The notes under the pieces are model-generated. The model was not told the origin of the DNA and did not search any database. It saw only the letters and a program-made list of their open reading frames with translations. Below, piece by piece: positions 46,985-62,500 of a stretch of 64,000 nucleotides of DNA; the first letter of the stretch is position 1, and every line of letters starts with the position of its first letter. Location: assembly GCA_003604995.1 (NCBI GenBank), contig QZJD01000054.1, positions 9,692 to 73,691 of the forward strand. The letters run 5' to 3'. This DNA is from Desulfobulbus sp. GTDB lineage: Bacteria; Desulfobacterota; Desulfobulbia; Desulfobulbales; Desulfobulbaceae. A program made the position numbers and the translations under genes.

Positions 46985-48112
46985 TCAACGGTCGGGCGCC
47001 GCGAGCAGGATGCCGGCGTTGATGCCGCCGAAGCCGGAATTGCAGGAAAGGACCGTCGGACAGGTGAGCGGCAGGACCGCGGTGCCGGAGATGGGCGCAT
47101 CGGGAAATTCACCCCCGGCATGGCCGATCGTGGGCGGAAGATGACCACTCTGCAAACTGCGCAGGGCAATCGCCGCCTCGATCACCCCGGCCGCGCCCAG
47201 GCAATGGCCCAGCGCACCTTTCACCGAGTGGATCGGCGGCGGTTTAGGCCATTGGCCCAGAAAGGCGGTCATCTCCATGGCGTCGTTGTAGCGGGTGCCG
47301 GTGCCGTGCGCATTGATCCCGCCCACCGCTACGGTTCCGTTCCCAGTCGCCAGACGCAGCACTTCCCTGAGCCCGCGCGCCTCCCTGCTTGGTGCAGTGA
47401 TGTGGGTGGCGTCACTTGCCGCGCCCCAGCCCGCGACTCTGGCCAGGACCGGCAGGGAATGCGCTGCGGCGAAGGCCGCGCTGGTCAGAACGAGCAGGCC
47501 CGCGCTTTCGCCCAGGGACAAGCCCTGGCGATCGGCGGCAAAGGGGCGGCAGGGTTCCGGGTCCAGGGCCTGCAGGCAGGCAAAGCCGGCCAGGACAAAG
47601 CGGCTGGCGATATCCACGCCGATGACCGTCGCGACCTCGCAGTCGCCGCGCCGAATCTTGAGCGCGGCCTGAATCAGGGCCAGGGTTCCCGAGGCGCAGG
47701 CCGCGCTGACCGTCTGTACCGCGCCTCGGCACCCGAGAATCCCGGCGGTCAGCGTTCCGGCCTGCCAGGCCTGGCCCCGCCATGGCTTTGCTCCCGGCGG
47801 CAACAGCTCGTCAGCGGCACCTTTGGTGGTGGCGACCAGCAACTCGCCCGGACCGATGATCCCGGCCATGGCCGCCAGGGGTCGGCTGACCTCCCTGAGC
47901 GCAAACTCCAGGCGGGCCGGCGAGCCGATCTCGCCCGATCCTTTGAGCAGCCCCAGCGGATAGGTCGATCCCAGGTCAGGCGCGGCAAAGGGCCGCAGGC
48001 CGCACTTTCCTGCGAGCAGGCCTTGCCAGGTATCGTCCAGTCGCCCCAGGGCGGTCAGAACCTCGGCGGCGACGACCACCGGGGTGTTTGCTGCGGATGC
48101 TGGCGACGGCAT
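46985..48112 (-). CDS. beta-ketoacyl-ACP synthase (active-site Cys present)
   Basis: SAACASGTLALIQAA, INAHGTGTRYND, KGALGHCLGAAG. Start set at ATG 48112, after the dehydratase stop. Confidence 0.85.
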   Translation of the reverse strand: MPSPASAANTPVVVAAEVLTALGRLDDTWQGLLAGKCGLRPFAAPDLGSTYPLGLLKGSGEIGSPARLEFALREVSRPLAAMAGIIGPGELLVATTKGAADELLPPGAKPWRGQAWQAGTLTAGILGCRGAVQTVSAACASGTLALIQAALKIRRGDCEVATVIGVDIASRFVLAGFACLQALDPEPCRPFAADRQGLSLGESAGLLVLTSAAFAAAHSLPVLARVAGWGAASDATHITAPSREARGLREVLRLATGNGTVAVGGINAHGTGTRYNDAMEMTAFLGQWPKPPPIHSVKGALGHCLGAAGVIEAAIALRSLQSGHLPPTIGHAGGEFPDAPISGTAVLPLTCPTVLSCNSGFGGINAGILLAAPDR

Positions 48113-48120
48113 GGCGATTG

Positions 48121-48990
48121 TCACCCGTTGCGCAGGAGGAGGGCCGTACCGCTGCTGCAACGGCCTCCTGGTCCGGCCAGCGTAAAGGTGACCGCCGGCA
48201 GGTCGTCCTGCCCGGCAAGGACGGCCTCAATGACAACGGTTTCATCCGGCAGGATCGGCCGCTGCCATTTCAGCCCCGCCATTTCGGAGGGCAGCAGCTC
48301 GCCGCCGAGAACCTGTTCGAGCAGGACCCGCACCGCCGCGCACTGGACAATGGCCGGCAGGATCGGTCGCCCCGGAAAATGGCCTTGGAAGCCTGCGAAA
48401 TCAGCGGAAAAATGAAAGGTGCCGCTCACGATTTCTCCGTTGTCCTGTTGCCTGATCCCCCGCAGAGCCTTGGTTCTCAGGTAATCGAGCAGGGAGGAGG
48501 CGGCGTCCGCCGGAAAGAGTGCTTGCGGTGCGGCGGGGGCAGGGAGCATATCATTCCCGTGCCGGATTTTCAGGCGGCCCTCGGCCAGCAGGTCATCGCC
48601 CTGGCTGATGCTGCCGGTCAGGACCAGCACCGGTCCGAAGGTCAGCTCGGTTTGTGCCCGGACCCGCAGTATATCCCCCGGTTCGACGCGGCGGTGCCAG
48701 GAAAAGCGGTCCAGGGCGGCCAGCATGCCGCCCCCCTCTTCGCGCTGTTCAAGACGGGCCAGAAAGCCCTGGCCCGCGGCCGCCGACTGGGCGAGCAGCT
48801 CAATGCAGAATTCCGGCATGAGCCGCTCCCGGTCGACAAAGGGGCCGTTTATCGGCGCGGCGGCCAGCGCCTCGCAGATCAGCCCCCGGTCGCTGCCGGA
48901 CTCCGAGCGCAGCAGAGTTCCTTCGATGCGCAGGGGCGGAGCATGGGGCACGAGGCCTGCGAAAGGGCACGGCAAAAGAATACTGCTCAT
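48121..48990 (-). CDS. double hot-dog-fold dehydratase (FabA/FabZ-like)
   Basis: ORF trimmed to ATG 48990 (ATGA overlap with the upstream gene). The second half carries FAGFQGHFPGRPILPAIVQ, the FabZ-type HxxxxPxxPG motif. Confidence 0.75.
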   Translation of the reverse strand: MSSILLPCPFAGLVPHAPPLRIEGTLLRSESGSDRGLICEALAAAPINGPFVDRERLMPEFCIELLAQSAAAGQGFLARLEQREEGGGMLAALDRFSWHRRVEPGDILRVRAQTELTFGPVLVLTGSISQGDDLLAEGRLKIRHGNDMLPAPAAPQALFPADAASSLLDYLRTKALRGIRQQDNGEIVSGTFHFSADFAGFQGHFPGRPILPAIVQCAAVRVLLEQVLGGELLPSEMAGLKWQRPILPDETVVIEAVLAGQDDLPAVTFTLAGPGGRCSSGTALLLRNG

Positions 48991-49814
48991 GGGCTGGTGC
49001 GGCCGGAAGAGGAAAGGCTCGGCGGACAGGGGGCGGACCACAGGCAGACGCTGGCCTTGCCGAAGCGGGCGGTGACGGTGATTTGTTTTTCGCCCTCCCA
49101 GCAGGTCTTGCCGGCCAGGTCGGTGAGCAGCAGCGGCAGGGCCATGGGATGCAGGTCCAGGGGTGCCTCCGGATCGCCTGCCAGTAGTTCCTCCCGGTCC
49201 AGCGCGGTCTCCGGCGGTGCCGCTCCCTCCGAAAAGCTCACCTCGCGCAGGCTGAGCGCCCGCGGATTGATCGCCTCCCGGTCCAGGACCCAGGCCACGG
49301 CGCAGGGCGGCCATTCTTCCACGGCCTGCGGGATCATGCGCCTGCGCGTGTCATGGAGGAGCGGGGCATAGGTTTCGACCTGCAGGATCAGGGCACGGTC
49401 CAGCCTGCCGGTGGCGAGCATGAAATCGGCGTTTGCCAGGCCCTGCAGAAAGGGCCAGGTAAAGGAGGTGAAGGTCCAGGCCCCGCCGAAGATGCCGAAC
49501 AGGCGGCTGGCGTAGCCGGCGGCCGCATTGAATACCGAGTGGGAGAAAAGGGTGGGCGAGACCGGTTCCTGGTCGATGAGCGCATCGAGCACATTGAAAT
49601 TGGATTGCATGGGGCCGAAACAGGTGCCGAGAAAAAGGCCGCAGCGCTCGCCGGGCCGTTCAACAGCGACGACCTGGACCAAGGCCTGGTGGGCGGCCGC
49701 GGCGGTCAGCTGAATGAACTGGTCGCCCCGGCGCAACGGCTTACGCAGGTATTCCGGCAGTTCGGGGACCGTGCCGGTGACCGACGCGCAAGCGATGATG
49801 AACGGTCCCGTCAA
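48987..49814 (-). CDS. KS-like protein without catalytic Cys (chain-length-factor-like)
   Basis: TTG start at 49814 in a TTGA overlap with the KS stop, with GGAGG upstream. KS N-terminal-like sequence (RRGDQFIQLTAAAAHQAL..GLFLGTCFGP) but no C-H-H triad. Confidence 0.6.
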   Translation of the reverse strand: MTGPFIIACASVTGTVPELPEYLRKPLRRGDQFIQLTAAAAHQALVQVVAVERPGERCGLFLGTCFGPMQSNFNVLDALIDQEPVSPTLFSHSVFNAAAGYASRLFGIFGGAWTFTSFTWPFLQGLANADFMLATGRLDRALILQVETYAPLLHDTRRRMIPQAVEEWPPCAVAWVLDREAINPRALSLREVSFSEGAAPPETALDREELLAGDPEAPLDLHPMALPLLLTDLAGKTCWEGEKQITVTARFGKASVCLWSAPCPPSLSSSGRTSP

Positions 49815-51052
49815 CCGAGCGCCTCCAGGACGACTGCCCCGTTGAAGCCGCCGAAGGCCAGGGACTGGCTGATCCCCTTTCTGCCGAAGAGGGGGGCCGT
49901 GCTCCCCGCCGGCAGGACGGAGACGGGCAGGGTGGAATCCGTCTCCCCGCAGCCGGGGGTTCCGCCGGTGACACCCGCACTCAGGGCGAGCAGGGTGATG
50001 ATCGCCTCGACGGCCCCGGCCGCGCCCAGGGTGTGACCGGTGCCGCCCTTGGAGGAAACCATCCGGCATTCCTCCCTGAAAGGGAAGCGGGCCAGGGCGG
50101 TTGCCTCAGCGGCATCGTTGACCAGGGTGCCGGTGCCGTGGGTATTGATATAGGAGATTTCCGCCGGGTCCGTGGAGGCATCGGCCAAGGCAGATCGGAG
50201 GGCGGCCTGCAGGCCCCGGCCTTCCGGATGCGGGGCGGTGGGGTGATAGCCGTCGGTGGCCGCGCCGTAGCCCAGGAGGATGCCCCGCGGGCGCGCCTCC
50301 CGCCGCGGCCGGTCTTCCCGTTCAAGGACGAGGATGCCCGCGCCTTCACCCAGATTGAGGCCGGCCCGGTCAGGGGCAAAGGGCCGGCAGGGTGTCCTGC
50401 TCATCAGCATGAGGGCCGAGAAGCCGTGATAGGCGATCCGCGACAGCTCATCCGCGCCGCCGGCGATGACGATGTCGCAGCGGTCCTGTTCCAGCCAGAT
50501 TTTGGCCAGGCCCAGGGCGTCCGTGCCCGAGGCGCAGGCATTGGTCACCACGGTCGCCGGCCCGGTCGCGCCGAGAACGGTACGAATCAGCGCGCCGAGA
50601 TTGCTGCCCAGGTAGTTGCGCACCGGGGTGAGATCAGGCGCGGCGCCGCCGCGCCATGAAGCATAGTACTCTTCGTTGTTGAAGGTGCAGCCCACGGTGG
50701 TGCCGATAATCACCCCGACCCGTGCCTCACGAAAGCTTTCCTCGCAGAGGCCGGCGTCGGCCACCGCCTCGGCCACCGCCTCCAGAGCCAGCAGAGCCGT
50801 GCGGTTAAGGCCGTGGGGCAGGGAGGCTGCCGTCGATGTTGCCCCCAGCAGCCTGGCCGCCGAAGGCGAGGGCAGGGCGCGTTCGACGAGAAAGGCCGGA
50901 AAGGGGAGCTGGTCGTGAAAGAACTCCGGGGGCACGGGGCCGCAGCGGACCGGCAGATCGGTCAGTCGGGCGTTGAGTTCCGTTATCCCGAAAGCGGCGG
51001 CGCAGCAGCAGCCCATGCCGGTGATCAGGATTCTTGGGGGGGCGGAGGGCAT
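49811..51052 (-). CDS. beta-ketoacyl-ACP synthase II-like (FabF-type)
   Basis: RILITGMG, TNACASGTDALGLA, INTHGTGT, SSKGGTGHTLGAAG. Confidence 0.9.
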   Translation of the reverse strand: MPSAPPRILITGMGCCCAAAFGITELNARLTDLPVRCGPVPPEFFHDQLPFPAFLVERALPSPSAARLLGATSTAASLPHGLNRTALLALEAVAEAVADAGLCEESFREARVGVIIGTTVGCTFNNEEYYASWRGGAAPDLTPVRNYLGSNLGALIRTVLGATGPATVVTNACASGTDALGLAKIWLEQDRCDIVIAGGADELSRIAYHGFSALMLMSRTPCRPFAPDRAGLNLGEGAGILVLEREDRPRREARPRGILLGYGAATDGYHPTAPHPEGRGLQAALRSALADASTDPAEISYINTHGTGTLVNDAAEATALARFPFREECRMVSSKGGTGHTLGAAGAVEAIITLLALSAGVTGGTPGCGETDSTLPVSVLPAGSTAPLFGRKGISQSLAFGGFNGAVVLEALG

Positions 51053-51064
51053 GACGGGAGACGG

Positions 51065-51322
51065 TCAGGTGGAGCGCCGGGCAAGGATAAAGTCTGCCAG
51101 GGCGTTGATGGAGGCAAGGGCGGCCCGCCCCTCTTCCATATCCTTGATCTGGACGCCGTAGCGTTTTTTGATCAGGACCACCATTTCCACCGCGTCCAGG
51201 GAGTCGAGGCCGAGTCCCTCCCCGAACAGCGGTTCGCTGTCGCGGATATCGTTCGGGTCCAGGTCCTCCAGTTTCAGGTCCGTGACCAGCATTTCCTTGA
51301 GTTCGCGCTTGAGCTGCTCCAT
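51065..51322 (-). CDS. acyl carrier protein
   Basis: ORF trimmed to ATG 51322. 85 aa. Phosphopantetheine site GLGLDSLDAVEMV. Confidence 0.85.
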   Translation of the reverse strand: MEQLKRELKEMLVTDLKLEDLDPNDIRDSEPLFGEGLGLDSLDAVEMVVLIKKRYGVQIKDMEEGRAALASINALADFILARRST

Positions 51323-51607
51323 GCCTCTGTTTTCTGGCTGCGTTGAGGGGTGATTGATGACGGTTTCCAGATAAACATTATCACATAATGGCGGGGCTGT
51401 CGGCTTATTCTTTGTTGGGCGCGGGAAAAAATGATGGCGTCGCGAATGGCGAAACACTGCGCAGCCGCTGCTGAGATTTCGGCAAATTGCAGGAAATGCC
51501 GGGGTCAGTCCCGCGCCTTGCGCAAGACTGACAAGAAAAGATGAGGTTGTCCACCGGGGCTTGCGAAAAGAGTCGCAGGGAAATCAGGCCGGAAGAAACG
51601 CGGCGAC

Positions 51608-52135
51608 TCAGCCCCGGGCCGGCCAGATTACCCTGAATTCCGTGATGATTTCCGGGTCGTCGTCGCCGGGCAGGACGTCCGTTTCCCCGGCGAGCAGGCA
51701 GTCGAGGTCGCCGCCGGCGGCGAGCCAGAGCCGGGCCGTGGCCTCGGCCTCCGCCATGGGTTCGGCCGAAAGCAGGGCATAGACCGGGCCGGTCAGCCGG
51801 TAGTGGATGGCCGCCTCGGCCAGGGCGATATTGGGCAGGGTATAGCTGAACAGCGCCGGACTGGCGCCGTCAAGCCCCGCCGCCAGGGTCTTGGCATAGG
51901 CGAGATCCGTGGCCAGTGAACCCCAGCGGCTGCCGGCGATCAGGCCGATCCGGCCCCGCGCTCGCCGTGCTCCGGAATGCTCCTCGAGCAGTCCCGCGGC
52001 GAGCAGGGTCCTGCCCACGGCGAGCAGGGTGGCCTGGCTGAGCAGGTCCATGCGGCCCCAGCGTTCCGGCAGCCTGCCGAGGATTGCCCGGTTTTCCGCG
52101 GTCAGGCGGCAGGCGTCGGCGCGAACGGGAGGCAT
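51608..52135 (-). CDS. small beta-ketoacyl synthase N-terminal-like domain protein (no active-site Cys)
   Basis: 175 aa. MDLLSQATLLAVGRTL..IGLIAGSRWGSLATD..FSYTLPNIALAEAAI. Resembles the small KS-like partners seen in aryl-polyene-type clusters. Confidence 0.55.
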   Translation of the reverse strand: MPPVRADACRLTAENRAILGRLPERWGRMDLLSQATLLAVGRTLLAAGLLEEHSGARRARGRIGLIAGSRWGSLATDLAYAKTLAAGLDGASPALFSYTLPNIALAEAAIHYRLTGPVYALLSAEPMAEAEATARLWLAAGGDLDCLLAGETDVLPGDDDPEIITEFRVIWPARG

Positions 52136-52139
52136 GGAC

Positions 52140-53189
52140 CTATCTGCCGTTGCGCGGCTTGAGCCAGCAGGAAGGGTCTTCGGCCAGATGGTCGCCGGTG
52201 GTCTGGTAGGCGTGGCCGCGGCAGCCGTAGCAGAGCGCGTTGAACTCGCAGTCCGCGCAGCGGCCCTTGATGGTCTGCCTGATATTGCGCAGGTCCCGGA
52301 TCACCGGGCTGGTTTGCAGAATGTCCCGCAGGGAGGCGAACCGGATATTGCCCACCGGGATGTTCACCCCGGGGCAGGGGTTGACCTCGCCCAGGGCGGT
52401 GACCGTGCAGGAATATTCGTGCCGGGCGCAGTGCGAGGCCGCCAGCGGTGGATGGGGCGTCCAGTGGTTGCCGTATTCCCGGGCATCGATTTCAGCGAGC
52501 GCGTCGAACAATTGTTTGAGTCCCTCGCGGCTCACCTCCAGGTTCTGGTGCTCCAGGGCCCGGCCCTGCATGGTCATCACCTCGATGTAGGGGACGATGC
52601 GGCGGTCGCGCGCCCAGCGCCACAGCGCGGGAATTTCGTCGTAATTCTGTCGGCAGATGATGCTTTCGATGCCCAGGACACGCTCGTCATCGGGATAGCC
52701 GGCGGCCAGGAGATGATCGAGGCCCCGCATGATCGCCGCGTGCGTTCCCGCCCGGCCGGCAAGCTCGTCCTGGACCGCGGGATCCAGGCTGTTCATCTTC
52801 ATGGAGACGGAGACCCGCAGGGCATGCAATCGCTCTGCCTTTGCCCGGTCCAGGAGGGTGGCGTTGGTGAACAGGTCGGCGTCCAGACCGAGGCCGCGGA
52901 TAAATTCGAGGACCGGGAAGAGGTGCGGCGAGAGCAGGGGTTCGCCGCCGCCGATGACGATGATCTTGCGGGCGCCGAGGGTCGCTGCCTGGTCGATGAC
53001 CGAGAAGAGTTCGTCGCGGCTCAGTTCGTCCTGGAGGGCCTGGCCCGAGTCGGCGTAGCAGTAAAGGCAGCGAAGGTTGCAGGCCCGGGACAGTTCAAGC
53101 TCCATGGAGAGCAGGCCGCCCTGGGTGCGGCACTGGGCAATTTGCGCGGGGCTGAATTCCAGGCCCCAGAATTCGTGCAGACAGCTCAT
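52140..53189 (-). CDS. radical SAM enzyme with a C-terminal SPASM-type auxiliary-cluster domain
   Basis: CNLRCLYCY (CX3CX2C). C-terminal CPG..., CADCEFNALCYGCRGHA and ..DPSCW. Confidence 0.85.
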   Translation of the reverse strand: MSCLHEFWGLEFSPAQIAQCRTQGGLLSMELELSRACNLRCLYCYADSGQALQDELSRDELFSVIDQAATLGARKIIVIGGGEPLLSPHLFPVLEFIRGLGLDADLFTNATLLDRAKAERLHALRVSVSMKMNSLDPAVQDELAGRAGTHAAIMRGLDHLLAAGYPDDERVLGIESIICRQNYDEIPALWRWARDRRIVPYIEVMTMQGRALEHQNLEVSREGLKQLFDALAEIDAREYGNHWTPHPPLAASHCARHEYSCTVTALGEVNPCPGVNIPVGNIRFASLRDILQTSPVIRDLRNIRQTIKGRCADCEFNALCYGCRGHAYQTTGDHLAEDPSCWLKPRNGR

Positions 53190-54490
53190 TTTTTGCGGAA
53201 ATCGAAAAATCGTTTCATTTTGCGCTCGCCCTCGCCGGTCATGGCGGCCATGACCTGGTCGATATCCCGCACCACCACCTCGGGCTTGACCCGCAGGCGT
53301 GCCTGGAGCAGGGTTTCAATCTCCCGCCCGTCGAGGTCGTCAACGCCGCCCACCACCACCCGGACCAGGTCCGAAAGGTCGTAGTCGGAGCGGACTTCCA
53401 GGTACGAGGCCCGGACGCCGGGCACTTCCTGGAGGAGCTGGAAGACGGTCTCCGGATAGAGGGTGGTGCCCTTCATCTTCAGGCGCTGGGCGACCCGGCC
53501 CTCGATGGGGCCGATCCGCTCGCTGTGCCAGCCGCAGGCGCACGGCTCGCTGTATTTTCTGGCGATGTCACCGGTCCGGAAGCGGATCAGCGGGAACCCC
53601 TCAACGCCCAGGGGGGTGAGGACCAGTTCGCCGGGCCGGCCGTCTCCGAGGGGATGCCCCTGCTCATCGATGATCTCGGCCAGGCACAGTTCCGGATGGA
53701 GATGGCCGCCGCATCCGAGGGGACATTCGCAGATGCCGGTTTCCAATTCGGTGGCCCCGTAGGACGCGCAGGCCGGGCAGTTCCACGACCTGGTCAGCTC
53801 CTCGCCCAGGGGGGTGAGGCGCAGGTCCGGCCGGCGCACCGGTTCGCCGATGATTACCAGTCTTTTGATGCCGGCCTCTTCCGGTCGGAAATGGTGCGCC
53901 CTGGCCCACTGGGCGATCTGGAGAAGGAAGGTGGGCACCCCGACCAGGACCGTGGGCCGCAGGAGGCTGATCAGCTCCCACTGCCGGGCGGGCTGGCCCG
54001 AGCCGCTGCGGATCGCCGTGGCCCCGAGGCCGACGATACCCTGGTAGTAGGCGAGGCCGGCGATGAAGCAGCGGTCCAGGGTGACGCAGACCAGGCAGCG
54101 GTCGCCGCCCCTGGTGCCGGTACCGTAAAAGGACATGGTTTCGTTGTAGGCCAGCCGCGCCAGGTCGCCCGCGGTATAGGGCACCTGCACCGGTGGGCCG
54201 GTGGTGCCGGAGGTCAGGGCCAGATCGGCCACCGCCTCGGGCGGCACCGCCCAGAGCGAGGGACCGTGGTGGTCCAGATCCTCCCTGGCGGTCAGAGGCA
54301 GACGGGGCAGGTCGGCAAGGCTTCTGATATTCTCCGGCGCAATGTTGGCCGCGGCCAGCCGGTCGCGGTAGAACGGAGCCTTCAGGGCATGGGTGACATG
54401 CTCCCGCAGCAGGCGGGCCTGGAGATGTTCCCGGTCACCGCTCGCCATTTCCCGCAGGCGGATTCCGGCAGCTATGGAATATTCGGTCAT
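53186..54490 (-). CDS. PaaK-like adenylate-forming ligase (phenylacetate-CoA ligase / F390-synthetase family)
   Basis: LTSGTTGPP (A3-like), YGATE, FRTGDI, and the C-terminal small domain. Start at ATG 54490 (alternative 54523). Confidence 0.8.
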   Translation of the reverse strand: MTEYSIAAGIRLREMASGDREHLQARLLREHVTHALKAPFYRDRLAAANIAPENIRSLADLPRLPLTAREDLDHHGPSLWAVPPEAVADLALTSGTTGPPVQVPYTAGDLARLAYNETMSFYGTGTRGGDRCLVCVTLDRCFIAGLAYYQGIVGLGATAIRSGSGQPARQWELISLLRPTVLVGVPTFLLQIAQWARAHHFRPEEAGIKRLVIIGEPVRRPDLRLTPLGEELTRSWNCPACASYGATELETGICECPLGCGGHLHPELCLAEIIDEQGHPLGDGRPGELVLTPLGVEGFPLIRFRTGDIARKYSEPCACGWHSERIGPIEGRVAQRLKMKGTTLYPETVFQLLQEVPGVRASYLEVRSDYDLSDLVRVVVGGVDDLDGREIETLLQARLRVKPEVVVRDIDQVMAAMTGEGERKMKRFFDFRKK

Positions 54491-55058: not shown

Positions 55059-55087
55059 TTGACAGGCCCCCGTGGCCAATGTATTGA
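55059..55087 (+). promoter_or_regulatory. sigma-70-type promoter candidate for the plus-strand half of the lipid cluster
   Basis: TTGACA-17 nt-TATTGA in the divergent intergenic region. Confidence 0.3.
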
Positions 55088-55168
55088 ATTTTAAAAGGTA
55101 AATTCACTTTCCCAAGATTGGAGCCCTGCCCGGCCGACAAAGACGGCTGTGTCGAACAGGAACCGGAC

Positions 55169-56065
55169 ATGACCATGGCCCGTCGCTGGTACGAGCAGAC
55201 TGAACGGGGGACCCCCTTTGCCCTGCGGCTGATCCGGGCCATTGCCCTGCATGTCGGGAGGCCGGCGGCAAGAACGCTGCTCTGGCCCATCGCCTGCTAT
55301 TTTTTTGTGCGGGCCGGTGAGCAGCGGCGGGCCTCGCGCAATTATCTCGCCCGCCTCCGTGGGAAACGGCCGGCCTGGTCCGAGGTGATCCGGCATATCC
55401 ACTGCTTTGCCGCCACCATCCTCGACCGGGTCTTTTTCCTCACCGACCGCTTCACCCTGTTTGACCTCCGCATCCATAACGCCGAGGCGCTGCTCAATCA
55501 TGCCGCGGCCGGCCGGGGCTGTATTCTCCTGGGTGGCCACGCGGGCAGCTTCGAAGTCCTGCGCGCCCTGGCTGCGGAGAGAAGTATTCCCCTCAAAATT
55601 CTGATGTATCCGGAGCACAACCGCACCCTGACCGGAGTGCTCCTGGAGCTGAACCCGGCGGTGCGCGATTCGATTATTCCCCTGGGCGATCCCTACGCCC
55701 TCATCGAGGTCAAAGAATATTTGTCCAAAGGCGGGATGATTGGTATGCTGGGCGACAGGGCAGGTCGGGGCGACAAGGCGGTCCGGTGCCGTTTTTTCGG
55801 GGCGCCGGCATCCTTCCCGCCGGGGCCGGCCCTGCTGGCGGCGGCCACCGGCGCACCGGTCATTTTTTTTGCCGGCCTCTACCGGGGCGGCAAGCGCTAC
55901 GATGTCTATTTTGAAGAACTCAATCCCGGGGTGACCGTGGCGCGGGGTGAGCGCGAGGCGGTCACCGAGCGCTTGACCCGGCGCTTTTCCGAGCGCCTGG
56001 AACACCATGTCCGCCTGGCGCCCTATAACTGGTTCAATTTTTATGAGTTCTGGGATGAGATGTGA
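55169..56065 (+). CDS. LpxL/HtrB-like lysophospholipid (lipid A-type) acyltransferase
   Basis: ORF trimmed to ATG 55169. N-terminal TM. GCILLGGHAGSFEVL (HX4E/D-type motif). Family resemblance to aryl-polyene-cluster acyltransferases. Confidence 0.75.
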   Translation: MTMARRWYEQTERGTPFALRLIRAIALHVGRPAARTLLWPIACYFFVRAGEQRRASRNYLARLRGKRPAWSEVIRHIHCFAATILDRVFFLTDRFTLFDLRIHNAEALLNHAAAGRGCILLGGHAGSFEVLRALAAERSIPLKILMYPEHNRTLTGVLLELNPAVRDSIIPLGDPYALIEVKEYLSKGGMIGMLGDRAGRGDKAVRCRFFGAPASFPPGPALLAAATGAPVIFFAGLYRGGKRYDVYFEELNPGVTVARGEREAVTERLTRRFSERLEHHVRLAPYNWFNFYEFWDEM

Positions 56066-56660
56066 TTGGAAGCGACTGCTCCTGCTGGCGCTTTTTCTGA
56101 CCTGCCTGCCGCTGCCTGCGTTCGGCAATCAGGAAGAACCCGGCCCGGCGCTGGCGCGGCTGATGGCCGATCTGCGGGCCGAAGCGGCCAAGGGGCGGAC
56201 GATCGCCTACCGCGAGGAAAAGCACTATGCTTTTCTTGAGCAGGACCTCAAAAGCAGCGGCTTCCTCTCCTTCCGGCCGCCGGACACCCTGATCCGCCAG
56301 GTGCTGACCCCGGAACCAGCCCGCTACATCATCAAAGGGCCGCGGCTGATCATGGAGGAAGAGGGCAGACCGCGCCGGGAAATCAATCTCGGGGACTACC
56401 CGCAGGCCGCCGCCTTCATCGAGGCCCTGCGCGCGGTGCTGGCAGGTGATCTGCTTGCTCTCGAGCGCCATTTCCAGGTGACCTTGCGCAGCGGCCACAT
56501 CCGTTGGACCCTCCAGCTTATTCCCCGCGATCCGCAAATGGGCAAGGTCGTGGAAGCCATTTCCCTGACCGGCCGGGGCGGGCTGGTGGGCGAGGTGCGG
56601 ACCAGCGAGGCCGGCGGCGATTATACCCTGATGGTTCTTTCCCGTGAGGCGGACCAATAG
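56055..56660 (+). CDS. LolA-like outer-membrane lipoprotein carrier family protein
   Basis: ORF trimmed to ATG 56055. Signal peptide MRCDWKRLLLLALFLTCLPLPAFG. LolA-like length and beta-rich sequence. Positioned between the acyltransferase and the exporter. Confidence 0.65.
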   Translation: MRCDWKRLLLLALFLTCLPLPAFGNQEEPGPALARLMADLRAEAAKGRTIAYREEKHYAFLEQDLKSSGFLSFRPPDTLIRQVLTPEPARYIIKGPRLIMEEEGRPRREINLGDYPQAAAFIEALRAVLAGDLLALERHFQVTLRSGHIRWTLQLIPRDPQMGKVVEAISLTGRGGLVGEVRTSEAGGDYTLMVLSREADQ

Positions 56661-58973
56661 ATGGCGCGGCTGCTCATCTGGCTCGTCCTTTTTCTCGGGT
56701 GCTGCCTGCTCATTTTCACCAGAGCGCGGGTGCAGTCGGATATCAGCCTTTTTCTGCCCGCGGCCGCGACTCCCAAAGAGGAGCTGCTGGTCAACGAATT
56801 GCGGGAAGGACCCGCCTCCCGGTTGATCCTCCTGGCCATCGAGGGGGGCGATGAGGCGAAGCGGGCGGAGAGCAGCCGCCGGCTGGCCGAGACTCTGCGT
56901 ACCTCCGACTTTTTTGTCCGGGTGGTCAACGGCCAAGAGACTGTCAGCCCGGAGGAGCAGGCCCTGCTGTTCCGCTACCGCTATCTCATCGGCCCGGAAC
57001 CGGCGGCGAACGATTTCCAGCCGGATACTCTCCGGCAGGCTTTGAACGAGCGGCTGCGCGATCTGCGCTCCCCGGTTTCCCCCCTGCACAGGCAACTGGT
57101 GGCGCGGGACCCCACCGGGGTGATGCTGGCCATGGTCGGCGAGGCGCAGGGCCAGTCCCAGCCGGCGAAGCGGTACGGGGTGTGGTTCAACGAAAGCGGG
57201 CGGCGGGCCCTCCTTCTTGCGGAAACCAGGGCCGGCGGCTTTGCCCTGGACCGGCAGGAAGAAGCGGTGCGCACCATCGAGGCCGCGTTTGCGCCCCTGG
57301 CCGCTGATCTGGGCACGGAGCTCACCCTGAGCGGTCCCGGCGTGTACGGCGTGCTGTCCCGGGACCTGATCCGGGGCGAGAGCAGCAGGCTCAGCGTGAC
57401 CGCGACTCTGCTCGTCTGTTTGCTTCTGCTGGCTGCCTATCGTTCGCTGCCGTTCGTGCTCCTCGGTGCTCTGCCGGTCCTGAGCGCGGTGGTCGCGGGC
57501 GTTGCCGCGGTGACCGTCGGCTACGGCGCCATCCACGGCATCACCCTGGCCTTCGGCATCACCCTCATCGGGGTGACCATTGATTATCCCCTGCACCTGT
57601 TCAGCCACCTGCGCGCGGATGAGCCGCCCCCGGCCACCCTTGCAAGGATATGGCCGACCATGTTCCTGGGGGCGCTGACCACCTGTTTCGGTTTCCTGGC
57701 CATGTTCCATACCGATTTTTCCGGCCTGGCCCAGCTGGCCGTTTTTGCGGTGACCGGCCTGCTGGCCGCCCTGTTCACGACCCGCTGGCTGATGCCGACG
57801 CTGGTCGCGGCGACCGGATCAGTCGACCGGGAACCGGCCCGGAAGGTCCGGTGGTTCGGCCATCCACCGTCCCTAAGCCGGGGGTCGCGCATGGCGGTTG
57901 TGGGGCTCGCTCTCCTGGCCCTGCTTTCCCTCATTTTCCTCAACCGCTCTCCTTGGGAGGATGACCTCGCCGCCCTGAGCCCGGTTGCTCCGGAGCTGAT
58001 CGCCCTGGACCGCGAACTGCGGGCCGAGCTGGGCGCTCCGGAAATAAGCCGGATGATCGCCCTGCGGGGGGAGAGCGCCGAGGAGGTCCTGCGGGCGTGT
58101 GAGACGCTGACGCCTGCCCTGGAGCGGCTGCGCGCGCGGGAGGCCCTGACTGGCTATCTGCCGCCCAGCCGGTTTCTGCCCAGTCCGCAGGCCCAGTCGG
58201 CCAGACAGGCGGCGCTGCCGGCGCAACCGGTCCTGGCGGCCGCCCTGGCCGAGGCCCTGGCCGACCTGCCCTTCAAGCCCGGTTTTTTTGCCCCCTTTGT
58301 TGAGGAGGTCGAACAGTCCCGAACCATACCCCCTCTTTCCCTCCGGGACCTGGAGGGAACGACCCTGGGCCTGCGGCTGGCCTCCCAGCTCATCGATACC
58401 GGCCGGGGCTGGCTGGCGATCATTCCGCTTGCCGGGGTGCGGGATCAGGAGGCGGTGGTCCGGGCGGTCGCGCAAGCGGGCGTGTCCGGTTTCGCCCTGA
58501 ACCTGCGCGAGGAAATGAGCCGGCTGGTCAGCGGCTTCCGGGATGATGCCCTGGTCAGTCTCGGTCTCGGGCTTGCCTGTATCGTGGCGGCCCTTGCCGT
58601 CGGTCTTCGCTCGACTGCCGGCGTCGTTCGCATTCTGGCGCCGGTCCTGCTCGCCCTGGGGCTCGATCTTGCCCTGCTTCTCTGGAGCGGGCAGCGCCTT
58701 TCCCTCTTTCACCTGGTCTCCCTGCTGCTGGTCCTGGGGATTACCCTGGACTACAGCCTGTTTTTCAATCGGTGCGGCGACGGCCCGGAATTTCGTTGCC
58801 GCACCCTATACGCCATCTCTATCTGCGCCCTGTCCACCCTTCTGGTGTTCGGGATGCTGGCCCTGTCGAAGGTGCCGGTGCTGGCCGCCATCGGCAGGAC
58901 GGTCGCCTTCGGCGTGCTGGCCGGTTTCGTCATGAGCATGGTGCTGGCGAAGCCGACGGAGGGGCCGGCATGA
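56661..58973 (+). CDS. MMPL/RND-superfamily putative lipid exporter
   Basis: 770 aa. Two bundles of ~6 TM segments, each preceded by a large soluble loop. Confidence 0.8.
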   Translation: MARLLIWLVLFLGCCLLIFTRARVQSDISLFLPAAATPKEELLVNELREGPASRLILLAIEGGDEAKRAESSRRLAETLRTSDFFVRVVNGQETVSPEEQALLFRYRYLIGPEPAANDFQPDTLRQALNERLRDLRSPVSPLHRQLVARDPTGVMLAMVGEAQGQSQPAKRYGVWFNESGRRALLLAETRAGGFALDRQEEAVRTIEAAFAPLAADLGTELTLSGPGVYGVLSRDLIRGESSRLSVTATLLVCLLLLAAYRSLPFVLLGALPVLSAVVAGVAAVTVGYGAIHGITLAFGITLIGVTIDYPLHLFSHLRADEPPPATLARIWPTMFLGALTTCFGFLAMFHTDFSGLAQLAVFAVTGLLAALFTTRWLMPTLVAATGSVDREPARKVRWFGHPPSLSRGSRMAVVGLALLALLSLIFLNRSPWEDDLAALSPVAPELIALDRELRAELGAPEISRMIALRGESAEEVLRACETLTPALERLRAREALTGYLPPSRFLPSPQAQSARQAALPAQPVLAAALAEALADLPFKPGFFAPFVEEVEQSRTIPPLSLRDLEGTTLGLRLASQLIDTGRGWLAIIPLAGVRDQEAVVRAVAQAGVSGFALNLREEMSRLVSGFRDDALVSLGLGLACIVAALAVGLRSTAGVVRILAPVLLALGLDLALLLWSGQRLSLFHLVSLLLVLGITLDYSLFFNRCGDGPEFRCRTLYAISICALSTLLVFGMLALSKVPVLAAIGRTVAFGVLAGFVMSMVLAKPTEGPA

Positions 58974-60403
58974 GGGTTCTTTTCGTCTACTCCAACCAGA
59001 TTGCCGATGTCCAGCCCGCGCCGCCGGTGGGGCTCAGTTATGTGGCCACCGCCGCCGAGGCGGCAGGCCACCAGGTCCGCCTGGTCGATCTCTTCCTGGG
59101 CGGCAACCGTTCAGGCCGGCTGAGGCGGGCGTTGCGCTCCTTCCGGCCGGAGGTGGTGGCGGTGTCCGTGCGCAATATCGACAACGTCATTGCCCAGCGC
59201 CTGGTCGGCCACCTGGCGCGGTTGCGGGAGCAGGTGGCGCTGATCCGTGAGGAAAGCACGGCGCTGATCGTCCTGGGCGGTTCGGCCATCTCCATCCTGG
59301 GCGGGCGGGTCCTCGACCATATTGATGCCGACCTGGCGGTGACCGGCGAAGGGGAGGAGGTCTTTCCCGAGCTGCTGGCGCGGATCGCAACGCAGGACGA
59401 CCCCGGCCGGCTGCCCGGCGTGTACGGCCGGGGCGGAGCGGACGGAGCGCCGTCGCTCCCCCGGCGCTGCGCCGCCTTTGGTCCATCCGGAATGGAACGC
59501 TGGATCAGTTGGCCCGGCTACGAGCGGCGGGGCGCAACCTGGCCGATCCAGTGCCGCCGAGGCTGCCCCCAGCACTGCACCTACTGCTGCTATCCGGCCA
59601 TCGAAGGCAGCAGCCTGCGCCTGCGGCCGGTGGAGGAGGTGGTGGCCGAGATCAGGCGGGTGGCGCAGGTGGCGCGGCCGCGTTGCTTCGAGTTCATCGA
59701 TTCGGTGTTCAATGTGCCGGAGGAGTATGCGTTCCGGCTCTGCGAGGAGATCATCCGTGCCGGGCTCCGCGCCCGCTTCACCGCCATGGGCATGAATCCG
59801 CGGGCGATGTCCGCCGGGCTCCTTGAATTGATGCGGCGGGCGGGCTTCAATTCCCTGATGGTGACCCCGGAAAGCGCCAGCGACACCGTACTCTCCCGGA
59901 TGCGCAAGGGCTTCGGCCGGGCGGAGGTCATCCGCGCCGCGGAGCTGATCCGCGCCGCCCGGATCCCTTCCCTCTGGTTTTTTATGCTGGGCGCGCCCGG
60001 AGAGACGAAAGAAACGGCGGAGGAAACCGTTTCCTTTGTCGAGGAGCACCTCGCCTTTGCCGATTGCCTGCCGGTGTTCACCACCGGGGTGCGGATCCTG
60101 CCGGGCACGCGGCTGGCCGAGGAGGCGATCTGCGAGGGGTATCTCCGGCCGGATCAGGACCTGACCGCATCGGTGTTCTATGTTTCGCCGCTGGTTTCGG
60201 AGGAGTATCTGCTGGCGCGGGTGAACCGGGCGATCGCCAGGTGTCCGGCCGTGGTCCATGCCGCCGAGGACCCGGCCTCCTCCCTGCCCGGCAGGCTTTC
60301 CAGCAGGCTGCTGCATCTGTTCGGCGCGGCGCCGCCCTACTGGCGCTTCTATCCGCGTTTTCTCTCCCTGCCATTTGTCCACAAATCCAGGAGCAGACAA
60401 TGA
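58970..60403 (+). CDS. B12-binding-domain radical SAM enzyme 1
   Basis: ORF trimmed to ATG 58970 (ATGA overlap). N-terminal Rossmann-like B12 domain MRVLFVYSNQ..PPVGLSYVATAAEAAGHQVRLVDL. CX3CX2C motif CPQHCTYC. Confidence 0.85.
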   Translation: MRVLFVYSNQIADVQPAPPVGLSYVATAAEAAGHQVRLVDLFLGGNRSGRLRRALRSFRPEVVAVSVRNIDNVIAQRLVGHLARLREQVALIREESTALIVLGGSAISILGGRVLDHIDADLAVTGEGEEVFPELLARIATQDDPGRLPGVYGRGGADGAPSLPRRCAAFGPSGMERWISWPGYERRGATWPIQCRRGCPQHCTYCCYPAIEGSSLRLRPVEEVVAEIRRVAQVARPRCFEFIDSVFNVPEEYAFRLCEEIIRAGLRARFTAMGMNPRAMSAGLLELMRRAGFNSLMVTPESASDTVLSRMRKGFGRAEVIRAAELIRAARIPSLWFFMLGAPGETKETAEETVSFVEEHLAFADCLPVFTTGVRILPGTRLAEEAICEGYLRPDQDLTASVFYVSPLVSEEYLLARVNRAIARCPAVVHAAEDPASSLPGRLSSRLLHLFGAAPPYWRFYPRFLSLPFVHKSRSRQ

Positions 60404-61728
60404 GCGCCGGCCGGATCCTCTTTATATTTCCCAAGTGGCCGCCCTTGGCCCTGTGGGGACATTTTCAGTACAAGTTTCCGCCCTTGGGGCTCCTCGCCCT
60501 GGCCGCGCTTACCCCGGAAGAATTCACGGTCAGCTTCATCGATGAGAACGTCACTCCCATCGATTTCGCCGCTGAGGTCGATCTGGTGGCGATCAGCGTG
60601 ATGACCCCCCTGGCCCCCCGGGCCTATGAAATCGGCGATGCGTTCCGGGCCGCGGGCCGTACCGTGGTTATGGGCGGGATCCACGTGAGCTGCTGCCCGG
60701 AAGAGGCGGCGGCGCATGCGGATGCGGTGGTGGTCGGCGAGGCCGAGGAGGTCTGGCCCCGGCTGCTGCGGGAGTGGCGGGAAGGACGGCTGGCGCAACG
60801 CTACACCGTCGGCGATCTGGTCAATCTGGACCAGGCCTTTCCACCGCCGCGCCGCGACCTGCTGGCGCCGCGCAGCTACCTGATCCGCAGCACAATCCAG
60901 ATGACCCGGGGCTGCCCCCATGACTGCGAGTACTGCTCGGTCACCGCCTTTTCCGGCCGCCGCTTCCGCCACCGGCCCCTGGACCGGTTTGTCGAAGAAT
61001 TTCGCTCCCTGCCCGACCGCTTCGTCTTTATCGTGGACGACAACATCCTTTCCAACCGGTCCATGGCCGAGGACCTTTTCGACCGGCTGCGGGGCACGGG
61101 CAAGTGGTGGGGCAGCCAGGTGACCATCAGCGTGGGCGACGACGAGGCCCTGCTGCGCAAGATGGCCCTTTCCGGCTGCAAGTCCCTGTTCATCGGCTTC
61201 GAATCCCTGGACCAGGAGAACCTGCGCCTGGTGGGCAAGAAGTTCGTCCAGGCCTCCAAGAACATGGAGCGGATCAAGCGGATCCAGGATCAGGGCATCG
61301 GCATCCTCGGTTCGTTCATCGTCGGCCTGGACCATGACCGGGAAGACGCCTTTGAAAACCTCTATGAGTTCATCACCCGGGCCAGGCTGGAGGCCTTTCT
61401 TCTTTCGGTGCCCACCCCCTTTCCCGGCACCAGGATGACCCGGCGACTGGAAGAGGAGGGGAGGGTGTTGAGCAGGGACTGGGCCAAATACGACATGAGC
61501 ACCGTGGTCTTCCAGCCCAGACATTTCCGTCCCGAGGAACTGCAGGCGCGCTACAACGAACTGAACCATGCCCTGTACGGCTGGTCGTCGATTCTGCGGC
61601 GGACCGTCAATTTTAAAAAGAACATGATCATCTTCGTTCCGCAGAATATCGGCTTCCGGAACGCCTGGCGGAGCCTGGCCGCCGAACAGGAGCGCCACCG
61701 GCGCCGGGAGGCGGGCAATGGCCGCTGA
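60400..61728 (+). CDS. B12-binding-domain radical SAM enzyme 2
   Basis: ORF trimmed to ATG 60400 (ATGA overlap). ILFIFPKW..PPLGLLALAALTPEEFTVSFIDEN. CX3CX2C motif CPHDCEYC. Confidence 0.85.
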   Translation: MSAGRILFIFPKWPPLALWGHFQYKFPPLGLLALAALTPEEFTVSFIDENVTPIDFAAEVDLVAISVMTPLAPRAYEIGDAFRAAGRTVVMGGIHVSCCPEEAAAHADAVVVGEAEEVWPRLLREWREGRLAQRYTVGDLVNLDQAFPPPRRDLLAPRSYLIRSTIQMTRGCPHDCEYCSVTAFSGRRFRHRPLDRFVEEFRSLPDRFVFIVDDNILSNRSMAEDLFDRLRGTGKWWGSQVTISVGDDEALLRKMALSGCKSLFIGFESLDQENLRLVGKKFVQASKNMERIKRIQDQGIGILGSFIVGLDHDREDAFENLYEFITRARLEAFLLSVPTPFPGTRMTRRLEEEGRVLSRDWAKYDMSTVVFQPRHFRPEELQARYNELNHALYGWSSILRRTVNFKKNMIIFVPQNIGFRNAWRSLAAEQERHRRREAGNGR

Positions 61729-62500
61729 CCCCATGGTCGTTGCCGTTATTCCCGCCTACAACGAGGCACGGCGGATCAGGGCGCTGGCGGAGCAGGTGCG
61801 GGAGCGGCTGGCACGGGTGATCGTGGTGGACGACGGCTCCACGGACGGGACCGCGGCCTGTTTGGAGGGGTTGCCGATCACCCTCCTGCGCAACCCGGTG
61901 AACCTGGGCAAGGGGGCCGGCCTGCAGCGGGGGTTTGTCGCCGCGCTGGAAATGGGCGCGAGCGCAGTGGTCACCCTGGACGGTGACGGCCAGCACCGGC
62001 CGGAAGATATTCCCCGGCTGCTGGCCGCGGCGGAAGCTTGGCCGCGTCGGATCATCATCGCCGCCCGCACGGGCAACAGGGCATGCGCGCCGCCGCTCCG
62101 CCGTTTTGCCAACCGTTTTGCCGATTTCTGGATATCCTGGGCCTCGGGCTGCCCGATGATCCGGGATTCGCAGTCCGGCTTTCGTCTCTATCCGTCGGAG
62201 TTGCTGCGCCTGCTTCCCCTGCGGCCCGAGGAGAGAAACACCTTTGTTTTTGAGAGCGAGGTTCTGATCATCGCCGCCCACCTGGGCTGGTACACCGAGG
62301 CGGTGGCCATCGATGCCATCTATCGGCCGGACAACACCAGCAATTACCAAGCCTGGGCCGATACCTGGCGGATCACCCGCCGGGTCGCCGGCCACCTGTT
62401 CCGCCGCGGAATGTATCCGGCCGGCCTGCTGCGGGTGCTGCGGGTGCTGCCGGACCCCCGGAAAAAAAACGGGCCGGCCGCGCGCGCCCCGCTTTCTTGA
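61718..62500 (+). CDS. family 2 glycosyltransferase
   Basis: VVAVIPAYNEA..VIVVDDGSTDGT..NLGKGAGL..LDGDGQH. Confidence 0.85.
   Translation: MAADPMVVAVIPAYNEARRIRALAEQVRERLARVIVVDDGSTDGTAACLEGLPITLLRNPVNLGKGAGLQRGFVAALEMGASAVVTLDGDGQHRPEDIPRLLAAAEAWPRRIIIAARTGNRACAPPLRRFANRFADFWISWASGCPMIRDSQSGFRLYPSELLRLLPLRPEERNTFVFESEVLIIAAHLGWYTEAVAIDAIYRPDNTSNYQAWADTWRITRRVAGHLFRRGMYPAGLLRVLRVLPDPRKKNGPAARAPLS

Follow-up and report, generated by a model that had tools for sequence, protein, structure and literature searches.

The 64,000-nucleotide stretch of Desulfobulbus sp. contig QZJD01000054.1 analyzed here, hereafter the window, carries a 15.5-kb cluster (46985–62500) of 15 intact genes in two divergent arms. 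Judging from the families to which its proteins belong, the product is most likely an aryl-polyene (APE)-type lipid of the outer membrane that is tailored, and probably C-methylated, by radical S-adenosylmethionine (SAM) enzymes. Because per-gene identities split between two kinds of relatives, the cluster is a mosaic: a 'ladderane-like' chain-building arm of the Desulfobulbales stands beside an export, anchor and cobalamin (B12) radical SAM arm of the gammaproteobacterial APE type. As to the pathway as a whole, we lean towards a scheme of the APE kind, resembling type II polyketide synthase (PKS) and fatty acid synthase (FAS) systems, in which an unsaturated chain bound to an acyl carrier protein (ACP) would be modified by the radical SAM enzymes, anchored on a glycolipid and exported to the outer membrane.

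Gene coordinates are the JGI gene calls for the identical contig Ga0104761_1000062, mapped onto the window, and domains were assigned by Pfam and NCBIfam profile searches of the cluster proteins. The minus-strand arm has nine genes, in the order lipoprotein, ligase, SPASM-type radical SAM enzyme, small protein resembling the N-terminal part of a ketosynthase (sKS), then after a 285-bp gap ACP, beta-ketoacyl synthase (KS), chain-length-factor (CLF)-like protein, dehydratase (DH) and second ketosynthase (KS2). The six genes of the plus-strand arm encode an acyltransferase, a LolA-like carrier, an MMPL exporter, two cobalamin-binding radical SAM enzymes (B12a and B12b) and a family 2 glycosyltransferase (GT2). 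Eight of the 13 same-strand junctions overlap (four as ATGA, one as TTGA, one as GTGA and two over 11 bp). On one side the cluster is flanked by a ZnuA gene (233.9 bits) and on the other by a multihaem cytochrome gene. An earlier sequence-only reading of this DNA had proposed the same gene order and strands, which agree with the JGI calls for all 15 genes, and had named both flanking genes and the exact length of the gap; its family assignments were all upheld by the profile searches, those of DH and sKS being the weakest.

The chain-building genes point to an APE-like synthase. The main KS (49811–51052, minus strand; 413 aa; PF00109 and PF02801) has intact Cys-His-His motifs and is of the ApeO type (36% identity, E=3.5e-49), with 269 bits on PRK09185, whose cutoff is 407, and 159 bits against PDB 6qsp_A. 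The CLF-like protein (48987–49814, minus; 275 aa, TTG start) is of the ApeC type: it scores 41.6 bits on PF13723, above the cutoff, finds ApeC by phmmer (E=5.6e-7) and weakly matches PDB 6qsp_B. The cluster has one ACP, not two, a dedicated ApeE-type protein (51065–51322, minus; 85 aa) with a DSL serine motif, 81.7 bits on PRK09184 (cutoff 70) and 44% identity to ApeE (E=9e-23). KS2 (46985–48124, minus; 379 aa, GTG start; PF00109 and PF02801) likewise keeps its Cys-His-His motifs, with a divergent N-terminal third; at 37% identity to ApeO against 32% to ApeR it was rejected as an ApeR orthologue.

DH (48121–48990, minus; 289 aa) is a putative double hot-dog dehydratase in which an ApeP-like N-terminal half is fused to an ApeI-like C-terminal half. 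The former matches FabZ model NF000582 (E=2e-9) and ApeP (E=0.007), the latter ApeI (E=6e-6) and PDB 3esi (E=1e-5); every Pfam score lies below the gathering cutoff, and the matches precomputed by JGI are ApeP-like and ApeI-like. sKS (51608–52135, minus; 175 aa) scores 21.4 bits on PF00109 and aligns with FabF residues 65–190, its catalytic Cys replaced. It is kept next to the SPASM gene in Desulfobulbales at 46–76% identity. These two putative assignments are the weakest of the cluster, being made on sub-threshold or borderline matches. The adenylating ligase (53186–54490, minus; 434 aa; PF00501) is of the PaaK/FlxY type: FlxY (NF053551) is its best-scoring family (389.5 bits, cutoff 520), and it has no similarity to the ApeH of E. 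coli. Its gene overlaps the SPASM gene by 4 bp.

The genes for anchoring and export are also those of an APE cluster. The lipoprotein (54536–54955, minus; 139 aa), with a signal peptide and an FAGC lipobox, is ApeA-like (31% identity, E=1e-18) and 47–49% identical to genes of clusters in Sedimenticolaceae, described below. The LpxL-type acyltransferase (55118–56065, plus; 315 aa; PF03279, 50.8 bits) matches ApeJ residues 233–549 (29%, E=6e-38), and GT2 (61718–62500, plus; 260 aa; PF00535, 80.4 bits) matches ApeJ residues 1–236 (31%, E=3e-25), so that ApeJ appears here as two separate genes. By its family matches GT2 resembles polyprenyl-phosphate-sugar synthases (PpgS 93 bits, below cutoff). 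The periplasmic carrier (56055–56660, plus; 201 aa; PF19574, LolA_3, 64.4 bits) is of the ApeL type (phmmer E=1e-14) and weakly matches LolA2_flexi (56.5 bits, cutoff 125). The MMPL/RND exporter (56661–58973, plus; 770 aa; PF03176) is of the ApeM type (phmmer E=6e-42).

Compared directly with 18 proteins of the E. coli CFT073 APE cluster (APE_Ec; NC_004431, 1143727–1158748), the window thus yields homologues of ApeA, C, E, J (in two parts), L, M and O (twice), and tentatively of ApeI and ApeP, at 26–44% identity, which bears out the APE-like architecture seen in the sequence-only reading. With the APE clusters of E. coli CFT073 and Xenorhabdus doucetiae (APE_Xd) the window shares the ApeO/ApeC-type KS-CLF pair, the ApeE-type ACP, putatively the ApeI and ApeP dehydratases, and the anchor and export set (ApeJ, ApeL, ApeM, ApeA), and with them the overall logic by which a type II PKS, primed by a ligase, makes a chain destined for an anchor and for the outer membrane (for the steps and the localization, PMC8253772; PMC8358021; bioRxiv 10.1101/2020.12.19.423268). 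Several features set the cluster apart from APE_Ec: its ligase is of the PaaK/FlxY type rather than ApeH, the two parts of ApeJ are the first and last genes of one arm, ApeI and ApeP seem to form a single protein, and there are in addition a second ApeO-like KS, the small CLF-like sKS and three radical SAM enzymes. Counterparts of ApeB, D, G, H, K, N, Q and R are missing from the window. Searches of the whole window by tblastn, with the ketoreductase (KR) proteins of three related clusters (ApeQ and the KRs of L085 and L002, two of the relatives described below), the APE_Ec proteins and homologues from Desulfobulbales and Sedimenticolaceae as queries, returned no KR, thioesterase, class-I methyltransferase, phytoene-desaturase-like oxidase, PlsC-type acyltransferase or PagL, in keeping with the earlier statement that a KR, a thioesterase and a methyltransferase are missing. 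Over the 5 kb that follow ZnuA, JGI annotates only ArsR/ArsP-type and unrelated genes. By homology, then, the scaffold is genuinely APE-like, yet it is without several defining APE features. The flexirubin clusters of Bacteroidota likewise specify an aryl-polyene outer-membrane pigment, and their FlxY and LolA2_flexi families are matched here below the equivalog cutoffs; the window cluster has none of their tyrosine ammonia-lyase (TAL) or dialkylresorcinol genes. Flexirubin clusters are not known to carry radical SAM enzymes.

All three radical SAM enzymes of the window retain the CxxxCxxC motif. B12a (58970–60403, plus; 477 aa; PF02310 and PF04055; motif at residue 199) scores 310.9 bits on TIGR04072 (rSAM_ladder_B12, lipid biosynthesis B12-binding/radical SAM), for which the cutoff is 360. 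Its homologue in Sedimenticolaceae scores 327, and the enzyme in the equivalent position in Desulfurivibrio alkaliphilus is a full member at 607.4 bits. Since B12a falls below the cutoff that this equivalent far exceeds, and is 31–33% identical to true members, it is best placed as a sister clade of TIGR04072 rather than as an equivalog. It lies in a FAS/PKS-like lipid cluster with a second B12 radical SAM gene, GT2 and an LpxL-type acyltransferase alongside. The next-best sequence families are BzaD, PhpK and TsrM-type Trp methylase. An AlphaFold model (pLDDT 92) has three domains: a Rossmann domain for B12 at the N-terminus, then a radical SAM barrel, then a C-terminal domain. In Foldseek, TsrM ranks first (TM 0.82, E=1e-27), followed by MgmA/QCMT, CysS, AprD4, TokK and OxsB (TM 0.65–0.67 for MgmA/QCMT, CysS and TokK). 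TsrM, MgmA/QCMT, CysS and TokK are alike in fold but share just 18–21% sequence identity with B12a. In TsrM, Glu273 ligates the unique cluster iron and so underlies a non-radical mechanism. A phmmer alignment puts Val246 and an invariant Tyr208 of B12a at the positions of TsrM Glu273 and Glu236, so B12a is probably a conventional radical enzyme that does not share that mechanism.

B12b (60400–61728, plus; 442 aa; PF02310, PF04055 and a DUF4070 tail, PF13282; motif at residue 172) is distantly HpnR/BchE-like and is paired with a B12a-type gene in every case. With a B12-binding domain and a CxxxCxxC core each, B12a and B12b have the domain build of class B (cobalamin-dependent) radical SAM enzymes. 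The SPASM enzyme (52140–53189, minus; 349 aa) has a full SPASM domain (PF13186, 33.9 bits) behind its radical SAM domain (PF04055, 73.6 bits), with eight C-terminal auxiliary Cys. By sequence it is AhbD/NirJ-like (AhbD 150 bits, below cutoff). Its AlphaFold2 model (pLDDT 86) finds generic SPASM/twitch folds only (TM 0.62–0.71), which do not discriminate function. Homologues fall into more than 120 clusters at at least 59% identity, with source names almost all from Desulfobulbales. All five genomic contexts examined are Desulfobulbales or share the layout of the window, and in every one of these loci the SPASM gene directly follows the ligase gene.

Three types of related cluster can be set apart: type W, with the layout of the window; type D, of Desulfobulbales; and a gamma type, of Sedimenticolaceae (Gammaproteobacteria). 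Type W occurs in four independent assemblies, namely the window and loci L083 (B12a 82% identical), L084 (69%) and L087 (68%), which also share the flanking ZnuA and cytochrome genes; co-conservation of the radical SAM genes with the KS and ACP genes, a check named in the sequence-only reading, is thereby upheld. Because the four assemblies share both layout and flanking genes, an assembly chimera as the cause of the mosaic is excluded. The ApeA-like lipoprotein is not present in the other type-W loci, and no KR is seen in the visible parts of L083, L084 and L087. Comparison with L083 and L087 gives ratios of nonsynonymous to synonymous substitution rates (dN/dS) of 0.09–0.33 for all genes compared, so that the cluster genes are all under purifying selection; given this and the recurrence of the layout, a chance arrangement is excluded. 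The three radical SAM genes are among the most constrained: B12b is the most constrained gene of the cluster (0.09–0.17), with B12a at 0.17–0.19 and the SPASM gene at 0.18–0.23, next to 0.22–0.29 for sKS and 0.28 for KS2. A Y1 (IS200-type) transposase gene lies between the arms in L083 (4034–5017), where the window has none, and a gene for the lipid A deacylase PagL, which the window is without, follows GT2 in L084 (10184–10795) and L087 (331–942).

Type D is a larger cluster, represented by D. alkaliphilus (L085), Desulforhopalus singaporensis (L086) and a metagenome-assembled genome (MAG; L088). It comprises one or more extra B12 radical SAM genes, KS, a phytoene-desaturase-like oxidase, KS, ACP, a PlsC-type acyltransferase, ligase, SPASM enzyme, in some cases PagL, sKS, a B12 radical SAM enzyme, a TIGR04072 radical SAM enzyme, GT2, LpxL, ACP, KS, CLF, KR, ApeP, LolA and MMPL. 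Its ligase-SPASM-sKS and ACP-KS-CLF units are orthologous to those of the window at 46–73% identity; it shares the B12 radical SAM pair beside GT2 and an LpxL-type acyltransferase, an apparently ApeP-type dehydratase, the LolA-like carrier and the MMPL exporter. The window, in contrast, has no phytoene-desaturase-like oxidase, PlsC-type acyltransferase, ApeR-like KS or second ACP, and is without the extra B12 radical SAM genes, PagL and the KR that type D usually has; its gene order is rearranged into the two divergent arms. We take type D to be the cluster type of Desulfotalea psychrophila in Rattray 2009, matched by description and not by sequence; those authors reported it as syntenic with the ladderane-candidate clusters kuste3335–3352 of Kuenenia and listed radical SAM enzymes, a 'phenylacetyl-CoA ligase', a glycosyltransferase, a phytoene-dehydrogenase-like gene and an Mmp-like membrane protein. 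Two details of type D may be added. PagL lies within the D. alkaliphilus cluster itself (L085, 11212–11814), and in the Desulfobulbaceae MAG L088 the position between CLF and ApeP, where D. alkaliphilus has its KR, contains a further B12 radical SAM gene (19070–20518; 482 aa) whose product is 64% identical to the D. alkaliphilus enzyme at L085 2037–3464, so that the presence of a KR varies across this kind of cluster.

The gamma type is found in MAG loci L001, L002, L009, L010 and L015, and combines homologues of ApeA, C, E, G, H, I, J, M, O and Q with the B12a/B12b pair. Its acyltransferase-LolA-MMPL-B12a-B12b order is that of the window, with KS, CLF, DH and KR inserted between B12b and GT2. 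Unlike the window, these clusters keep ApeQ (the KR), an ApeH-type ligase, ApeG and a single KS-CLF pair, and have neither a SPASM enzyme nor sKS. In two of them a third B12 radical SAM gene, whose product is 34% identical to B12b, lies a few kb past the ApeA-like gene and is preceded by genes for a YiiX-type C92 peptidase and for Lgt (L001 19933–21012 and L002 19916–21241, both minus strand).

The per-gene identities that define the mosaic divide between these types. ACP, KS, CLF, sKS, the SPASM enzyme and the ligase are nearest to type D (38–73%), against 31–41% or undetectable similarity to the gamma type. For the acyltransferase, LolA, MMPL, B12a, B12b, GT2 and the lipoprotein, the nearest relatives outside type W are of the gamma type (35–71%), against 23–36% or undetectable similarity to type D. 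Across types, the B12a/B12b pair occurs within APE-type clusters of Sedimenticolaceae, Desulfobulbales and one Bacteroidota MAG; no ApeB is present in any B12-pair cluster examined, all three cluster types included; and each type has as many CLF-like proteins as it has non-ApeR KSs.

From this gene content a pathway can be proposed. The PaaK/FlxY-type ligase would adenylate a carboxylic-acid starter, probably aromatic as its family membership suggests, and load the ApeE-type ACP. The two ApeO-type KSs would then elongate the chain by malonyl units, each working together with a CLF-type protein that is itself catalytically dead; the presumed pairs are KS with CLF and KS2 with sKS, the latter suggested by the matching counts of CLF-like and non-ApeR KS proteins. 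Reduction of the beta-keto group would be carried out by a KR in trans, most simply the housekeeping FabG, and that reduction still happens is suggested by the retention of DH, the putative ApeP-ApeI fusion that would dehydrate the product to give a conjugated or polyunsaturated chain. The SPASM enzyme, apparently coupled translationally to the ligase, may abstract hydrogen from a C-H bond of the starter or of an early ACP-bound intermediate, in a reaction that by family resemblance could be an AhbD/NirJ-like oxidative decarboxylation or a desaturation. The two cobalamin enzymes would most likely install C-methyl groups and so replace the class-I methyltransferase ApeB; we favor C-methylation because none of the three types with the pair has an ApeB and because methylases are the nearest relatives. 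The split ApeJ pair, GT2 and the LpxL-type acyltransferase, would build and acylate the anchor. As in APE_Ec and APE_Xd, the lipid would then reach the outer membrane by way of MMPL, the LolA-like carrier and the ApeA-like lipoprotein.

Several observations weigh against this scheme. With no KR in the cluster or anywhere in the window, the chain-reduction step rests on an unseen gene, and with no starter-making gene of the UbiC or TAL type visible in the window, the 'aryl' part is putative. No member of this kind of cluster has a known product. The anticorrelation of ApeB and the B12 pair rests on just three cluster types, and the fold search does not discriminate among functions for the SPASM enzyme. 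Tubeworm endosymbionts, Betaproteobacteria and Polyangiaceae have homologues of B12a at 47–62% identity that stand by themselves, away from any lipid cluster, and the substrate of B12a may therefore not be APE-specific. Class B radical SAM enzymes also carry out chemistry other than methylation, as in BchE and OxsB, and the 'ladderane' B12 radical SAM enzyme is listed as an unknown transformation (2026 review).

In two further readings the radical SAM enzymes would do more than methylate. In the first, they would perform redox or C-C bond-forming steps on the ACP-bound polyketide, and the mosaic would be a natural minimal set, made up of the ligase, the SPASM enzyme, two KSs with CLF-like partners, DH, ACP, the two B12 enzymes and the anchor and export genes; we hold this to be improbable, though if true it would imply chemistry such as KR-independent unsaturation, or ring or cross-link formation related to ladderane chemistry, and a structurally new class of outer-membrane lipid in anaerobes other than anammox bacteria. 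The second, which we consider quite improbable, is a ladderane-like or otherwise cyclized lipid: on an ACP-bound, polyunsaturated chain the radical SAM enzymes would form C-C bonds that give rings, cyclobutane among them, or cross-links, in line with proposals for anammox bacteria, and the cluster would represent that chemistry outside the anammox group. The sequence-only reading had drawn a ladderane link, and the link itself stood: B12a is a near-member of TIGR04072 with a full member in the equivalent position in D. alkaliphilus, the ligase, SPASM and KS arm is that of the Desulfobulbales type, whose clusters are syntenic with those of Kuenenia (Rattray 2009), ladderane radical SAM chemistry is itself still unassigned, and some class B enzymes, including the BchE and OxsB just named, do cyclize or rearrange their substrates. 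What did not stand is a closer identity, since B12a lies below the TIGR04072 cutoff, its nearest relatives are gammaproteobacterial and some of them stand alone. Moreover, D. psychrophila carries the fuller cluster yet contains no ladderanes. Anammox Cluster I (KustE3603–3608), compared through the published description of the Kuenenia genes rather than by sequence, consists of amxACP, amxFabZ, the FabF2/FabFmut pair, a phytoene-dehydrogenase-like oxidase and a B12 radical SAM enzyme; this set is not matched in the window, which has no amine-oxidase or phytoene-desaturase-like gene, no counterpart of amxFabZ or of the anammox-specific extra KS pair, and no further B12 radical SAM gene, and its DH is instead apparently of the ApeI/ApeP type. 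The absence of Cluster I weakens a cyclobutane-type product in particular. The nearest structures to B12a are methylases, and antiSMASH 'ladderane' calls are widespread outside anammox bacteria, where they have never been tied to ladderane lipids. It is the lack of ladderanes in D. psychrophila, the missing Cluster I genes and the methylase-like relatives of B12a that lead us to disfavor a ladderane product.

Other alternatives change the nature of the chain, its anchor or the membership of the pathway. Rattray 2009 proposed an anaerobic pathway to polyunsaturated fatty acids (PUFAs) or hydrocarbons, whose non-aromatic chains would serve as membrane lipids or hydrocarbons and not as a pigment, and tied the C31:8 and C31:9 hydrocarbons of D. 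psychrophila to these clusters. The lack of a visible aromatic-starter gene in the window would fit, and KS/CLF/DH systems do make polyenes (PMC8358021), but the phytoene-desaturase-like oxidases invoked by Rattray 2009 are absent from the window. The ligase, moreover, is of the PaaK/FlxY type and not a fatty-acyl ligase. The entire export and anchor set is of the APE type, which makes an outer-membrane lipid conjugate likelier than a free hydrocarbon. In other bacteria C31:9 hydrocarbons arise from the action of OleABCD on Pfa-type PUFA products, which also counts against this proposal; overall we regard it as unlikely. Similarly unlikely, in our judgment, is a role in the remodelling of lipid A or lipopolysaccharide, in which the radical SAM-tailored chain would be moved by the LpxL-type acyltransferase to lipid A, or to a glucosamine lipid akin to it, as the direct acceptor. 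The cluster would then serve mainly to diversify lipid A in the outer membrane and not to make an APE lipid of its own. The acyltransferase does belong to the lipid A late-acyltransferase family PF03279, PagL genes lie in or beside the clusters of L084, L087, L085 and L086, and lipid A has been considered a possible APE anchor (Johnston 2021, PMC8253772). Against this, the sole solved anchor of an APE lipid is galactosamine-phosphate-glycerol (bioRxiv 10.1101/2020.12.19.423268), the window has no PagL and the acyltransferase is a homologue of the C-terminal part of ApeJ; the proposal is in any case a variant of the APE-type scheme with a different anchor rather than a true alternative to it. 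Finally, the SPASM enzyme might be a maturase of ribosomally synthesized and post-translationally modified peptides (RiPPs) that merely neighbors the lipid cluster, the three radical SAM enzymes then not forming one pathway. The nearest solved SPASM structures are indeed the RiPP maturases SkfB, SuiB and CteB. The enzyme, however, has no RiPP recognition element (RRE) domain and no candidate precursor gene, its gene lies 4 bp from sKS besides overlapping the ligase gene, the ligase-SPASM(-sKS) unit is kept in every Desulfobulbales and type-W locus examined, and the best sequence families are the non-peptide enzymes AhbD and NirJ, with dN/dS in the low range given above. For want of an RRE and a precursor, and given the tight coupling to the ligase, we rejected a RiPP role, to which we attach very little probability.

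Clusters of this kind are already known: they were described comparatively in 2009, have an NCBIfam model, and are routinely flagged as 'ladderane' biosynthetic gene clusters (BGCs) in surveys of Desulfobacterota MAGs and in other phyla, so that the earlier suggestion of something undescribed was overstated. The same reading had allowed that the cluster might prove orthologous to a characterized pathway, and no such pathway was found; full-text literature searches returned no dedicated study of TIGR04072 or of radical SAM-containing APE clusters. What is new is the mosaic, reduced architecture, the identification, by homology, of the lipoprotein as ApeA and of GT2 and the acyltransferase as a split ApeJ, the modular behavior of the two radical SAM units, and the ApeB/B12 anticorrelation. 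For ketoacyl (non-isoprenoid) lipids, tailoring by radical SAM enzymes has been established or suggested in two cases only, jawsamycin and the ladderanes, and the ladderane enzymes have gone unassigned for about 20 years (2026 review). The cluster shows that two modules, the ladderane-associated B12 radical SAM pair and the SPASM-ligase-sKS unit, can be separated and exchanged horizontally; each plugs into an ordinary aryl-polyene outer-membrane-lipid scaffold, and strong purifying selection acts on both. It raises three hypotheses, that the B12 pair replaces ApeB, that sKS is the CLF-type partner of the second KS, and that the KR acts in trans, for which the cultured relatives D. alkaliphilus, D. 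singaporensis and D. psychrophila would be suited to testing. Assigning these enzymes would explain the 'ladderane' BGC calls outside anammox bacteria and narrow the candidates for true ladderane formation.

The stand-alone homologues of B12a have contexts (Verrucomicrobiota included) that are uninformative except for an adjoining PlsC-type acyltransferase gene. In the endosymbionts of the tubeworms Escarpia and Lamellibrachia (L003–L008 and L013), the homologue is 62% identical (match at 10001–11431), and none of the KS, CLF, ACP, export or GT2 genes of the cluster occurs within 10 kb. There the gene is convergent with one for a PlsC-type acyltransferase (L008, 11531–12280) and lies beside NosL, DsbD and ABC-transporter genes.

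Regulatory signals in the cluster are sparse. The promoter and terminator scan inside the cluster gave nothing exceeding the shuffled expectation, and an Rfam search found no RNA element within it. The 162-bp divergent intergenic region between the arms (54956–55117) has one weak promoter-like site, on the minus strand at 55115–55088. The 285-bp sKS-ACP spacer (51323–51607) lies where the ligase-SPASM-sKS unit adjoins the ACP-KS unit; across relatives it varies in length from 169 to 522 bp (L087 11597–11765; L083 617–1138) and is almost unconserved in alignment, with a single short conserved block, about AAGAAnAAGCCGAC, some 80 nt upstream of the ACP start codon of the window. This block may be a promoter or operator at the module seam.

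Outside the cluster, ZnuA shares the strand of the minus arm and lies 112 bp after KS2. Beyond it, a cpYpsA-family gene and an ArsR-ArsP-TrmO-thioredoxin-DUF2703-ArsP group (window 45473–45964, minus strand, and downstream, L081 17226–21050) follow; the group is probably an organoarsenical or metal-resistance island. On the other side, the multihaem c-type cytochrome (about 63100–64000, plus strand) has a signal peptide and five CXXCH motifs and is cut off where the window ends; in L084 and L087, too, the plus arm is flanked by cytochrome genes. The AT-richer spacer between GT2 and the cytochrome contains a perfect sigma-70 consensus (62723–62752, minus strand; TTGACA, 18 nt, TATAAT and an upstream TG) oriented antisense, towards the 3′ end of GT2, which could drive an antisense or small RNA or could be due to chance. 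Far from the cluster, a molybdenum-cofactor riboswitch (RF01055, 68.5 bits; 12844–12961, minus strand) lies directly upstream of a MoaA-type radical SAM open reading frame (11824–12870, minus), with a molybdopterin oxidoreductase gene nearby (15667–18309, minus).

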